Positions 11,611 to 59,975 of a stretch of DNA of 64,000 nucleotides are shown here, in pieces. The notes under the pieces were generated by a model. The model was not told the origin of the DNA, did no database searches, and saw nothing but the letters and a program-made list of their open reading frames with translations. Made by a program: the position numbers and the translations under genes. Each line of letters begins with the position of its first letter. Position 1 is the first letter of the stretch. Source of the stretch: Octopus vulgaris (lineage: Eukaryota); assembly GCA_951406725.2 (NCBI GenBank), contig OX597820.1, forward strand, positions 57,660,001-57,724,000, read 5' to 3'.

Positions 11611-11918
11611 TAATCGAATAAGCATCGTCGATAGCGACGGAAGATCCATCAACATCTAATGGATACACGAACTTTTTTTTTTTTCTTTTGGCTCTTTTCG
11701 GCTGTAGGTCGTGATTTGAACACCAGTTGGATTGTTTTTTTTTTTTTTTTGTTTTTTTTGTCTTCTAACAGGTCATGCGATGTCATTACACGTAGTAGGG
11801 TCTGTTTGCTCGACACTTTAAAACTGCCCTGGTGATCACCGCTGTAGTTGGTATAGCAACGGGGACTGTTGTTAGTCTCTGGTGGCTTCAATGAGACAAA
11901 GAAAGAAACCTGAATACC

Positions 11919-11960
11919 TATTTCTTTATTACCCACAAGGGGCTAAACACAGAGGGGACA
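11919..11960 (-). mobile_element. 42-bp 5'-truncated insertion of the SINE B tail with 13-bp TSD
   Basis: tatttctttattacccacaaggggctaaacacagaggggaca flanked by aaacctgaatacc at 11906-11918 and 11961-11973. Confidence 0.85.
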
Positions 11961-13831
11961 AAACCTGAATACCGACGGTCGCGACTGTGTCCCTCTGTCC
12001 GCTGCGATAATTAGTGACAAATATTTCGATGGTGTATTTAATTATTGATGAGTAAGGATGTTTAAAGGACACACACATCACACACACACACACACACACA
12101 CACACACACACAACCACCGACACCATTGCCAACTTCATATATAAATAATGAGAATATAAGTTAACCGGCAACATCCGGTATTTATGAATGTATGTGGGTG
12201 TATTCACGTACACTTACATACATATACGTATATGCATGCACATGTGTGTATATATATATACATGCATATATGCAAGTATATATATATATATACAGAGAGA
12301 GAGAGAGAGAGAGATAGAGAGAGAGAAAGAGAGAGAGAGAGAGAGAGAGAGAGAGAGAGAGAGAAAGAGTACGTGTATACGTATGTGTGCGTGTTATGCA
12401 AATTTTCTATAATTAGCCTCTTCTGTTTAGAATCAACCTTACAACTGTATATATATATATATATATATATATATAGAGAGAGAGAGAGAGAGAGATTGAT
12501 ACTTATGTGTGTATATAGGTGTATGCGATATAATTGCATGTATAATTGTAGGTGTATGCATATATTTATAGTAGCCATATATAGAATCACATTTGATAAA
12601 TGAGTATCATATGTAGATTTATATATACATATGTGTATGTGAATGTATCTAAGCGTGTGCGTGTGTGTGTGTGTGTGTGTGTGTGTGTGTCAGGACGTGT
12701 GTTAAAAATGTCAGAGAACGGAATGGAAGGAAATTGAGGGCAAAAGAAATATAAGTTAGAGTAAGGGGAAGGGGAGAAATATTGGTCCTGCGAAGTAAGG
12801 TTTATACGTTAACATAATCCCTTAATTCGTTCCTTGCCAGAAGAAAACGAACCAAAGCCACTTGCGACCTAAGCATTGAATCACATACATTTTGTCTATT
12901 TCACAGGCCTCTATTTAGTCTCCCTTGTACCTCTCTCTCTTTCTCTTTCTCCCCCCCCTCTCTCTCAACTCATCCTAGTTCTTCTTATCGTTTTTCTTTT
13001 CTATCAAGTAATCTATCACTTTTTCTCTTGGCTTCACCCACCATCACTCTTTCCGTCTTCCCCTCCTCTACTTCACCGTTTAGTTGACATTTTGACCGCG
13101 GTATCGCTGAGAGGAGATTTTTGTGGATATGAAAAATTGGTAGGTTGGAATTTCCTGTTTCTGAAACGCAACAGACAAGTTTCAGCTTGCCTGCATGCAC
13201 ACATACGTACGTACATACATACGTACGTACATACATACATACATACATACATACATACATACATACATACATACATACATACATACATACATACCAGCGT
13301 ACATACCAGCGTACATACATGAATACTTACGGTCATACATACAAACATGCGGACATGCATACCAACAAACATGCATTCATACATACACATATATATCCAT
13401 ATATGTACACATACATGCAAACATATAAACGCAATCATACATGCATACATAGACACATACATACAATCATACACACAATCATACACACATACATATAAAC
13501 AAAACCCCTTCTGTCTGTCTGTTTGTCTTCTGTCTCCGTCTGTCTGTGTCTCTCTCTCTGTCTCTCTCTCTCTCTCATTCACTCTGTTTCTGTCTCTGTC
13601 TCTCTGTTTCTGTCTGTCTGTCTGTCTGTCTCTCTCTCTCTCTCTATATATATATATATAAGTTCGACAAAAAACATTTCGTTTCGCCCGAAGGCACCTT
13701 CTAGATATATGTGTGTGTATATGTGTAATTGTGTGTGCCTGAGAGTGTGCATGAGTGTGTGTGCGCATGTGTGTGTGTGTGTGTGTGTGTGTATGTGTAT
13801 GTAAGAGCGTGTGTTAGCGAATGTGAATGTA

Positions 13832-14200
13832 CACTACCGTCAGAAATTAATTAGCACCCTTGATTTGCTCTTCACTCAAGGTATGTGCTGTCACCTAGTG
13901 GCCATATCTCGAACTATTGCTTTGTTGCGAGTTCACTGTTGCGCAGAACGATGACGTAACTTTGTTTGCAGAGCAGTTTGAGAGTCTACAGCCTTATGAT
14001 GTTGACATAGCAGTGCAACAACTTGGAGTGACAAATCTTCCTTTGTTTAATAGATATAGGTAGCGCCTCGCAAGGACCGAAATCCCACCATACTAAGTTT
14101 TCTCATCGCGTAAGACGTTTTGAACAGCTCATAAGGTTAATTGATTTAACCTATTTAATGTAGAAATTTGAGAAGTGCTAATTAATTTCTGACGCAAGTG
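13832..14200. mobile_element. Tc1-like MITE (369 bp), TA target duplication
   Basis: TIRs cactaccgtcagaaattaattagcac / gtgctaattaatttctgacgcaagtg (24/26 match), flanked by TA on both sides. Confidence 0.9.
13886..13904 (-). promoter_or_regulatory. Putative CTCF-binding motif inside the MITE
   Basis: Minus strand reads TGGCCACTAGGTGACAGCA, close to the bilaterian CTCF consensus; motif match only. Confidence 0.45.
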
Positions 14201-14482
14201 TATGCGAGTGTGAGTGCTTGCCAGTGCAAATATGGTTTCAACTTCGTCATTTTCGTTTCGTTATCATACATCATAGTCGTTTTTTTTTTTTGCTGAGATG
14301 ACACAATGTCTCTTAAGAAATAAATGTTGATGCCGAATTGCTTTTCGTGAAGTTGATCAAATTCTTGTTAATTTTCAGTTGCGTAATTTTCAATTAGGTG
14401 ACAGTCTCAAATACAAAAATATAAAAAAAAAGAAAAACGTAAAAAAAAATACAGAATAGTTTGAACAATATTCCTTTTCTCT

Positions 14483-15545
14483 AAGGCGGCGAGCTGGTGG
14501 TAGAATCGTTAGCAGGTCGGGGCGAAATGCTTAGCGGTATTTCGTCTGTCTTTACGTTCTGTGTTCAAATTCCAGAGCGGTCGACTTTGCCTTTCATCCT
14601 TTCGGGGTCGATCAATTAAGCACCAGTTATACACTGGGGTTGATCTAATCGACTTAATCCCTTCGTCTGTCCTTGTTTGTCCCCTCTGTGTGTAGCCCCT
14701 TGTGGGCAGTAAAGAAATAGGTATTTCCTCTGCCACTACGTTTTGAGTTTCAGATTCCGCCGAGGTCGACTTTGCCTTTCATCCTTTCGGGGTCGATTAA
14801 ATAAGTACTAGTTACACACTGGGGTCGATATAATCGACTTAATCCGTTTGTCTGTTCTTGTTTGTCCCCTCTGTGTGTAGCCCCTTGTGGGTAGTAAAGA
14901 AATAAGAAACGTTAGCACGCCGGACGAAATACTTAGCAGTATTTCGGTTGCCGTTACGTTCTGAATTCAAATTCCGCCGCGGTCGGGGTGAAATGCTTAG
15001 CGGTATTTCGTCTGTCTTTACGTTCTGTGTTCAAATTCCAGCGCGGTCGTCTTTGCCTTTAATCCTTCGGCGGTCGATAAATTAAGTACCAGTTACGCAC
15101 TGGGGTCGATGTAATTGACTTAATCCCTTTGTCTGTCCTTGTTTGTCCCCTCTATGTTTAGCCCCTTGTGGGTAATAAAGAAATAAGAAACGTTAGCATG
15201 CCGGACGAAATGCTTAGCGGTATTTCGTCAGTTTTTAAGTTCTAAGTTCAAATTCCCCCGCGATCGACTCTGCCTTTCATTCTTTCGGGGTTAATAAATT
15301 AAGTACCAGTTATGTACTGCGGTCAATCTAATCGACTGGCTCCCTCCTCCAAAATTTCGGGTCTTGTGCCTAGAGTAGAAAAGAAAGAATATTTCTTTTC
15401 TCTTAAGGCGGCGAGCTGGCAGAAACGTTAGCACGCCGGGGGAAATGCTTAGCGGCATTTCGTCTGTCTTAACGTTCTTTGTTCAAATTCCGCTGCGGTC
15501 GACTCTGCCTTTCATTCTTTCAGGATCGATAAATTAAATACCAGT
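14483..15545 (+). mobile_element. Head-to-tail array of Meta-domain SINE B (about 5-6 units)
   Basis: Repeated ..gttcaaattcc..gtcgactttgcctttcatcctttcggggtcga.. cores joined via the tail gccccttgtggg..aaagaaata. Confidence 0.92.
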
Positions 15546-58330: not shown

Positions 58331-58555
58331 TAAGGCGGCGAGCTGGCAGAAGCGTTAGCATGCCGGGCGAAAGGCTTAGCGGCATTTCGTCTGCCGTTAG
58401 GTTCTGAGTTCAAATTCCACCGAGGTCGACTCTGCCTTTCATCCTTTCTGGGTCGATTAAATAAGTACCAGTTAAGCACTGGGGTCGATGTAATCGATTT
58501 AATCCCTTGTTTATGCCCTCTATATTTAGCCCCTTGTGGGCAATAAATAAATAAA
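58331..58555 (+). mobile_element. SINE B inside the inner hAT MITE
   Basis: Full head, core and tail. Confidence 0.9.
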
Positions 58556-58672
58556 ATATTATAAGAGATAATGGTGTCATTGAGACCCCTTGCATCTATT
58601 TTCTTTCCTCCACCTCACTCTCTATTTTGTATCACATCTAAACTAACTATAACTTAACTATCCTCTCACACC

Positions 58673-58724
58673 GTCTCCGATGAAGGTATATAATTAATAA
58701 ATATCCTAGAAACAGCTGTAAGAC
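58673..58724 (+). ncRNA. Minimal hammerhead ribozyme with one core substitution (CCGATGA)
   Basis: Stem I gtct/agac; stem II agg-t-atat/atatcct; GAAA; C-[AGCT]-G; GUA triplet. Confidence 0.65.
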
Positions 58725-59359
58725 CTTCTATCAATAAATGCTCTAAAATCTACACAGCCTTGGGTTTTTTTTTATCTTATTACGCAAAAAATTCTTAAAT
58801 AAATTATATAATTTGCATACAATACTATAATAATATCATAAATTCATAGCATCCCCAGATCCACTGCCTTCTTTCCAATGCCTCCTCTTTCTGTACCGCC
58901 CCCACCCACAAATACACGGCCCTCTTAGACACCAGCGACCACCTAGACCCTCTCAACGCCCAGCGTGGGGCGGTAACGCCCACTTTGAGAACCAATGCTT
59001 TAGATGTATGTATTGCAAGAAACAGCCAAGTTTTTTCTCTAACATTTTACATAGTTCAACCTACACAAATTCATGTGTGTAAAACAAAATAGGAATTTTG
59101 AAAGAAGTCTCTATAAAACTATGGCGTCCACCAGAATAAAATAGTGATCAAAGGGGTCGATAGGTTAAAAAATTGTTGAGAACCCCTGGACTAGTATATA
59201 TATTTTAGTGATCCCAGAATGATGAAGAACAACGTCGATCTCGGTGTGATTTGAACACAGAACGTTAAAGGAGGAAGTTGACGCAAGACAAGCAGATGAG
59301 GGTGCATTGTAGGACGTATGCAAAAACACTGAGGATTAAAGTGTGTCTTGTATCTTTAT

Positions 59360-59975
59360 TTTTTGTTTCAGACATTAGACTGTGGCCATGCTGGATCACC
59401 GCTCTGAAGAATTTAAGTCGAATGAATCGATCCCAGTACTTTTTTTTTAAAGTCTGGTACTTATTCTAGCAATATCTTTTGTCGAATCGCTGCGTTATGG
59501 CTATGAAAGCACACCAACTCAGAGTTGTCAAGCGGTTATGGAGGACAAAGACACACACACACATAGATATATACGACGGGCTTCTTTCAGTTTCTTATTT
59601 CTTTATTGCCCACAAGAGACTACACACAGAGGGGACAAACAAGGATAGCCAAACGGATTAAGTCGATTATATCGACCCCAGTGCGTAACTGGTACTTATT
59701 TAATCGACCCTGAAAGGATGAAAGGCAAAGTCGACCTCGGCGGAATTTGAACTCAGAACGTAACGGCAGACGAAATACCGCTAAGCATTTCGCCCGGCGT
59801 GCTAACGTTTCTGCCAGCTCGCCGCCTTTGGCTTCTTTCAGTTTCTGTCTACCAAATCCACTCACAAGGCTTTGGTCGGCCCGAGGTTATAGCAAAATAA
59901 ACTTCCCACCACAGAGCAGAATTGAACTCGGAATCTTGTGGTTGGGAAGCTTCTTACTAGACAGCCACGCCTGCG
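59360..59975 (-). mobile_element. SINE family A split by a SINE B insertion
   Basis: Family A tail 59360-59595, head 59830-59975. Confidence 0.82.
59596..59829 (-). mobile_element. Young full-length SINE B with 17-bp TSD
   Basis: ggcttctttcagtttct at 59579-59595 and 59830-59846. Confidence 0.92.

Follow-up and report, generated by a model that had tools for sequence, protein, structure and literature searches.

The closest described parallel to the system reported here is that of SINEU-3 and Tx1-Mar in crocodilians. In the parts of Kojima (2015, PMC4494074) drawn on here, a short interspersed element (SINE) moved by a Tx1-clade long interspersed element (LINE) shows a strong preference for one site in a repeat and gives rise to tandem insertions. 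SINEU elements have small nuclear RNA heads and poly(A) tails, share a Mariner target with their LINE, and leave a target site duplication (TSD) sandwiched in the tandems; the introduction of that paper reflects the usual view that the endonuclease determines the target choice of Tx1 elements. Here we examine SINE B of Octopus vulgaris in a stretch of 64,000 nucleotides (the window; positions 57,660,001 to 57,724,000 of contig OX597820.1, assembly GCA_951406725.2) and in the genome. Unlike SINEU, SINE B has a LINE-type tail without poly(A). What is new relative to SINEU/Tx1-Mar is the use of its own tRNA-like head as a target, the formation of headless, age-ordered arrays, and target classes that follow the SINE subfamily. 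No prior description was found in full-text literature searches, with subscription journals and Repbase outside their scope, and the passages drawn on from a 2026 paper on O. vulgaris repeats (PMC13282606) contain none, the word "target" occurring in them 0 times.

SINE B is short (234 bp) and non-coding, with 91,523 exact tails genome-wide and TSDs of 12-22 bp, as is typical of a SINE. An older element, SINE A, has the same head and body and a different tail. Two hexamers, AGAAAC and GGTATT, occur in the SINE B head, as a preliminary description of the window had noted; they mark the AG site and the GG site, at element positions 18 and 51 respectively, numbered on the full-length copy at 59596..59829. 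The head is called tRNA-like from motifs resembling A and B boxes, picked out by eye; ARAGORN found 0 tRNAs in the window, and comparison with Rfam yielded no tRNA at E ≤ 1. SINE B may resemble the MetaSINE/MESC elements, which have a 66-bp Meta central domain. The copies in the window are the following.

11919..11960, minus strand: SINE B tail, 5'-truncated, 42 bp, within non-SINE DNA
11906..11918, minus strand: downstream copy of its 13-bp TSD, beginning GGTATT
11961..11973, minus strand: upstream copy of the 13-bp TSD
14482..15385, plus strand: SINE B/A array, 185-bp period; a head and B unit ending at 14719, a headless B unit at 14720-14904 (GG junction), a fragment at 14905-14985 (AG junction), a B unit ending at 15185, and a SINE A remainder from 15186 (AG junction)
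24179..24693, plus strand: SINE B array; its GG junctions lie at 24411 and 24511
near 24161-24176 and from 24694, plus strand: imperfect TSD of the preceding array, beginning AGAAAC
30743..31105, plus strand: B unit to 30963, then a degraded SINE A remainder at a GG junction
46660..47191, minus strand: array, 188-bp period; a B unit, a headless B unit (GG junction at 46995) and a SINE A-type remainder (GG junction at 46807)
58330..58553, plus strand: solo SINE B with an altered tail end
59596..59829, minus strand: full-length solo SINE B, 234 bp, with tRNA-like head, common body and Tx1-type tail
59579..59595, minus strand: downstream copy of its 17-bp TSD, beginning AGAAAC, inside the tail of another SINE
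59830..59846, minus strand: upstream copy of the 17-bp TSD

The preliminary description counted 12 SINE B tails, 11 of them continuing directly into one of the two hexamers, and all were found again at the same places. GGTATT follows at 14720, 24411, 24511 and 30964 (plus strand) and at 11918, 46807 and 46995 (minus strand), and AGAAAC at 14905, 15186 and 24694 (plus) and at 59595 (minus); the one exception is at 58554. This is far above chance, because the two words fill just 34 and 59 of 128,000 positions in the window. The claim that the hexamers follow "almost always" holds for the window but not for the genome. In the assembly (2.80 Gb in 227 contigs, labelled C1, C4 and so on), 36,229 (39.6%) of the 91,523 tails matching an exact 27-base pattern continue into GGTATT and 2,984 (3.3%) into AGAAAC, jointly 42.8%; the reversed pattern, as a control, had 0 matches. 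The window exceeds the genome in hexamer share, most of all for AGAAAC. The bias between tail and flank is nevertheless real and large.

Insertion sites were studied in a sample of 404 distinct tails from 410 loci (given L-numbers) and the window. The sample is non-random, consisting mostly of the first C1 matches together with sets picked for AGAAAC, for a C-type tail or for a non-T at +7; the picked sets were excluded from the counts that they would bias (the AGAAAC set from the class counts, the non-T set from the GG profile). Among 208 tails not running into SINE A or B and with a mapped 5' end, 94 gave a TSD call and 114 did not; 27 of the 94 were discarded as ambiguous or low-complexity, leaving 67, and shuffled pairs gave 4 false calls in 2,450. 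These TSDs begin at the tail end, and the motif is usually present in the upstream copy as well. It therefore belongs to the target DNA and is not simply the element end, the case that the preliminary description had named as fatal to its own proposal. Solo insertions are mostly full-length, and the bias is found in TSD-flanked solo copies, so that, as had been argued, it does not come just from slippage within arrays. The two window TSDs cited in this connection, of 13 and 17 bp, are real, and the hexamer opens their upstream copies too; the insertion at 59590, although outside SINE B as stated, lies in the tail of another SINE.

Target information is confined to positions -3 to +6. The first two bases of 204 non-SINE targets are GG in 67, TA in 68, AG in 31, GA in 11, AA in 8 and TG in 6; positions +1 and +2 are not independent, and GA and TG starts are rare. 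Three discrete classes emerge, GGTAT-, TATAT- and AGAA-, each fading from +1 to +6. The GG class continues with T (42/48), A (40/48), T (29/48) and T (24/48), the TA class with T (61/68), A (54/68) and T (48/68), and the AG class with A and A (21/26 each). There are therefore three preferences, not two: both hexamer preferences first described are real, but TATAT- is as common as GG in non-SINE targets and has no counterpart in the SINE head.

The SINE heads themselves are heavily used. In the sample, 190 tails pass directly into SINE A or B, almost all at element position 51 (GG) or 18 (AG), and these self cases make up 115 of 131 (~88%) GGTATT tails and 36 of 51 AGAAAC tails. Over 0.98 Mb of sampled DNA, insertions occupy the GG word in 85 of its 177 occurrences in heads versus 12 of 469 elsewhere (odds ratio 35), and the AG word in 30 of 126 versus 16 of 900 (odds ratio 17), ratios that local amplification has possibly inflated. 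The term "self-targeting" fits in that the SINE B head is hit, but it is too narrow, as the older SINE A, with the same head, is a target as well.

The target class depends on the SINE B subfamily, defined by C or T directly after the tail hairpin. Of the 19,808 C-tails genome-wide, 2,181 (11.0%) continue into GGTATT and 2,555 (12.9%) into AGAAAC; for the 71,715 T-tails, whose counts were obtained by subtraction, the figures are 34,048 (47.5%) and 429 (0.6%), giving an odds ratio of 93 between hexamer and subfamily. The same link is present in non-SINE targets (C-type 14 GG, 42 TA and 28 AG; T-type 53, 24 and 3; p = 4e-11) and is therefore not caused by arrays. Solo copies diverge by 0.085 in SINE A, 0.035 in the C-type and 0.030 in the T-type, with no clear age gap between the latter two (p = 0.22).

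Of 304 sampled heads, 99 start an array. Past the first unit the arrays are headless, their subfamilies are mixed, and their order runs from young to old; for these reasons repeated insertion fits better than slippage, and the original view that arrays are built by insertion into SINE heads appears sound. SINE A is the last unit in 30 arrays, a position partly set by design since the walk halts at an A tail. Two diagnostic sites were compared in 16 GG-site arrays that end in SINE A: at these sites the opening unit is B-type in 16 and 14 arrays, and the closing unit A-type in 13 and 12. The unit at the start of an array is younger than the one at its end (0.034 vs 0.044, p = 0.012, n = 61), with no difference in B-B arrays. 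Classical nesting, with a full-length copy behind a duplicated head segment, was flagged in 3 of the 99 arrays, one of them doubtful, and L141 is an additional case. Among T-type solos, 20 of 52 carry a head variant with C at the GG site, against 13 of 69 among the heads of GG-site arrays (p = 0.02), and C at +1 after the tail was seen once in 130. Host and newcomer thus both appear to contribute to array heads, as would follow if the cDNA anneals to the host head. Both junction types are also present in contigs from four runs of other organisms; at L040, a contig of another organism spans the locus and, judged by length, is shorter by ~207 bases (238 expected).

Tandem units of partial SINEs that start inside the head are also described, in the passages drawn on, for squamate SINE-derived satellites (PMC10702118) and bivalve tandem SINEs (PMC11481361). 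Those tandems are ascribed mainly to duplication and unequal recombination, whereas SINE B units contain the tail, come from different subfamilies and stand in order of age. A SINE-derived satellite implies local duplication and homogeneous units; most arrays here are of mixed subfamily and ordered by age instead, and some long ones may be partly homogenised. At locus L315, an array of five C-type units shows a private, locally amplified junction, which begins with TATATT and is joined at position 79 of the element.

The search for the enzymatic partner of SINE B led to a set of Tx1-like LINEs, reached through one fragment in the window.

23429..23720, minus strand: 3' fragment of Tx1-like family A, partly inverted, in a (TATC)n tract, with a related tail

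The set has endonuclease, reverse transcriptase and zf-RVT domains, related tails and no poly(A). The second open reading frame (ORF2) of family A contains PF03372, PF00078 and PF13966 and is L1-like, matching L1 ORF2p at E = 2.7e-53; family F, examined over its C-terminal 386 amino acids, contains PF13966 with 56% identity to family A, and open frames of 1,132 amino acids are listed. An APE endonuclease, a reverse transcriptase and a C-terminal zinc region in L1-related proteins are the domains of the Tx1 clade, of which 13 recently active families (L1-Tx1) are given for the 2.8-Gb O. vulgaris genome in the passages drawn on from PMC13282606. A tree, one row of which was in the wrong frame, groups just F1 with F2 (96/100). 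The closest tail to that of SINE B belongs to Tx1-F, first seen in L250, with 43 of 48 columns and 24 of the last 25 bases in common and the same predicted 4-bp hairpin; the tail scores are 36 for F1, 25 for A, 22 for E and 18 for B, with D not scored. A tail in common with a Tx1-like LINE, as originally suggested, was thus found, and judging from this sequence Tx1-F likely moves SINE B. Tail scores and targets spoke against families A, B, D and E as the direct partner (targets alone in the case of D), and candidates from a Pfam reverse transcriptase search were CR1-like and RTE-like elements (clades by eye) with unrelated tails.

The tail is shared, but a shared target was not seen in the copies covered. 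Of 387 F-type tails, flanks were tallied for the first 100 of 306 listed: ACAAC follows 47, ATCAC 28 and GGTATG 4 (three in one cluster), and neither GGTATT nor AGAAAC follows any of these 100 or occurs at 22 loci. The check suggested in the preliminary description, whether the LINE sharing the tail has the same bias, thus gave no sign of it in these copies. Seven Tx1-F copies with an end identical to SINE B have seven different flanks, two beginning GGT and none with either hexamer; one of them is flanked by a TSD of 15-16 bp that begins where the tail stops, just as in the SINE. These F1 copies may be younger than most SINE copies, and tail-end variants within Tx1-F also go with different flanks. 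Insertion at the GG site was seen in 0 of 63 cases for family E, and at the hexamer sites in 0 of 67 non-T flanks for family A. A target common to LINE and SINE, of the SINEU/Tx1-Mar type, was accordingly not seen for the F-type tail or for families A and E, although a sister family may have one. Pattern screens revealed no LINE family at either of the two head sites among the matches listed (the first 100 of each); those by exclusion turned up family E or nothing recurrent. At least six Tx1-like families have distinct targets, including (TATC)n (families A and B), (TTA)n (D), the head of another SINE (E; ~45-50 of 63, by eye) and a dispersed repeat. Families A, B and D behave like Kibi and Koshi, Tx1 elements with microsatellite targets in the sections of PMC4494074 drawn on; Kibi and Koshi use other repeat units, and A, B and D belong to a wider radiation with a common tail hairpin. 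For F2, the idea that the fixed flank is its own 5' end found no support, since an empty site exists and one internal array junction, at L431, shows a TSD-like spacer followed by other sequence; F2 may hitch-hike inside its host repeat.

We propose that SINE B, having a Tx1-like 3' end, is likely copied by the enzyme of that LINE lineage. This enzyme would be loosely selective in nicking DNA and would begin reverse transcription at targets that pair with the first 4-6 bases of the read-through flank of the SINE RNA. SINE B has no TTTT, i.e., no RNA polymerase III terminator, so its RNA would run on into the flank. The offspring of a source copy would consequently inherit its GG, TA or AG flank; the subfamily-target link itself is observed. 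With neither poly(A) nor terminator, the read-through flank would be the natural primer partner. Two of the flank types match sites in the SINE A/B head, so new copies land in old ones, a pattern that is observed. The cDNA then likely anneals to the host head, so that no second head would be added and a promoter-bearing unit with GGTATT would be regenerated. R2, an autonomous rDNA element, joins seamlessly at its 5' end where the cDNA is homologous to the upstream target; SINE B joining would be alike, except that its homology comes from its own head. For R2, 5' junction formation through homology with co-transcribed target is cited in PMC4494074. As to priming, in the passages drawn on, L1 relies on the last 4 primer bases in the snap-velcro model (PMC3649969), and SART1Bm and R1Bm use RNA ends resembling the target (PMC7265360). 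There, too, a few RNA-end bases pair with the nicked target and 4-6 nt matter most; the pairing sequence is fixed (poly(A), telomere, rDNA), whereas that of SINE B would be a variable, heritable flank with several classes per family.

A read-through flank would explain why the classes are short, discrete and tied to the subfamily, and why a LINE and a SINE with the same end have different targets, with a contribution of the endonuclease suggested by the bias at -3 to -1. We give an even chance to this combination of a loose Tx1 nick, pairing over 4-6 nt and homology-guided 5' joining. More tentatively, and at somewhat under even, we suggest that target choice is heritable in the RNA: the first bases of the landing site of each Tx1-type source copy would be carried along as a 3' guide, one enzyme lineage would take its passengers to different targets, and SINE B would be locked onto its own promoter region. 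A short GGUAUU-ended RNA was rejected as the rule, as TTTT lies within 6 nt past GG junctions in just 10 of the 123 self junctions and 5 of the 67 others.

Several observations weigh against read-through pairing. The Tx1-like families with their own targets are many, and family E cuts before AGAAGC, near the AG class; GGTATG follows four of the listed F-type tails, and two or three listed matches resemble LINE-type tails at the GG site (candidates only). The TA class lacks a site in the head, non-SINE targets of the GG and AG classes show no head match past +6, and the biased bases at -3 to -1 (R, R, not G) are inexplicable by RNA pairing. Where TSD copies differ at +1 to +3, the downstream copy is more class-like in 10 cases versus 3, which is not significant (p = 0.09), and mismatches at these positions (9, 7 and 6 of 67) are just modestly above those at later positions, which belonged to the seed. 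The base-pairing idea of the preliminary description therefore fits several indirect signs and is left with a weak direct junction test. Against a purely insertional origin of the arrays, the likeness of neighbouring units exceeds that of random pairs by 9-26% over their full length, and no step marks the point where the TSD should end. Because the junction test is weak and the many site-specific Tx1 families make a change of partner credible, we rate read-through pairing no higher than even. The main rival, which we rate below even, is that several Tx1 partners, each with a fixed endonuclease preference and some hitting SINE heads, moved the different SINE B subfamilies, the RNA flank being irrelevant. 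The diversity of Tx1 targets, the upstream bias and the GGTATG flanks would all suit this explanation, as would the family E cut matching the AG class, with a C-type SINE B at the same base of that other SINE in L311. T-type units stand 5' of C-type units 25 times versus 8 (p = 0.005), so the subfamilies are partly successive, and SINEU and Tx1-Mar do have the same target (PMC4494074, parts drawn on). Several partners would, however, require three enzymes discriminating tails that differ by one or two bases; the family with the closest tail lands elsewhere, and the screens showed no LINE family at either head site among the matches listed.

Unequal recombination or slippage could also have enlarged the arrays, or read-through RNA could have been copied into dimers that spread ready-made; most junctions would then not be separate insertions. 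The similarity of adjacent units without a step points in this direction, as do the long uniform arrays (six units at C1:4.607-4.608 Mb, eleven in L318), array heads that are partly B-type with the B-enriched variant in 13 of 69, and the attribution of tandem SINEs elsewhere to recombination. We consider it improbable, since first units are B-type and last units A-type in the 16 GG-site arrays, first units are the younger ones, the flanking TSD matches the flank of the last unit in 12 arrays, and the bias of solo copies requires insertion anyway. Even less credible, in our estimate hardly at all, is a single LINE endonuclease of dual or degenerate specificity making all targets, one of the two explanations first put forward. 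Pooled targets do yield a tidy consensus, RRH / DRTAW, but the first two bases are not independent in the counts above and the class tracks the subfamily; the hexamers split by subfamily, there is a third class, and Tx1-F was seen at neither site.

Whatever aims them, tens of thousands of headless, age-ordered self-insertions show how retrotransposition can turn a SINE into satellite-like arrays. In repeat annotation they will be misleading, appearing as 184-bp "satellites" and dimeric "families". With 90,000 natural insertions whose target tracks the passenger subfamily and not the closest LINE, the role of the RNA becomes directly testable. If the RNA flank is the guide, Tx1 ORF2 could be re-aimed by changing a few RNA-end bases, and the age-ordered arrays would record the succession of subfamilies.

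Some tail ends are doubled, with a 6-base repeat starting G ahead of GG-class flanks (9 of 100 in one set) or a 7-base repeat starting AG ahead of AG-like flanks (window 24399-24410; L381, L385, L396, L237, L274, L342); these may be re-priming slips of the reverse transcriptase on the RNA flank. The Tx1-like radiation with its common tail hairpin includes many near-identical copies with open ORF2 and targets such as a dispersed ORF-like repeat (L132, L171-L230, L231, L250, L149, L191, L039, L317). Full-length elements form head-to-tail arrays in family D (5.87-kb period; C4:93.80-93.83 Mb, C47, C50) and family F (period ~5.26-5.29 kb; C27:32.96-32.98 Mb, C22:14.18-14.19 Mb). F-type tails also recur with a 1.78-kb period, about one ORF2 short of the full element (C1:118744545-118751693, C1:115855518-115859101, C3:85750541-85755861), possibly as a non-autonomous derivative. 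At L250:1503-1571, a Tx1-F copy stops exactly where a 5'-truncated SINE B starts, which would reflect either a chimera made by template switching or insertion of the LINE within the body of the SINE. The window also contains an old Tx1-like 3' fragment at 29028-29470 (plus strand), with 35% identity to family A and a related tail at its end, and a 20-bp minisatellite of 22 copies at 40007-40448. Finally, a palindromic element of ~270 bp sits in the tail of a SINE B copy (L022:1213-1486).

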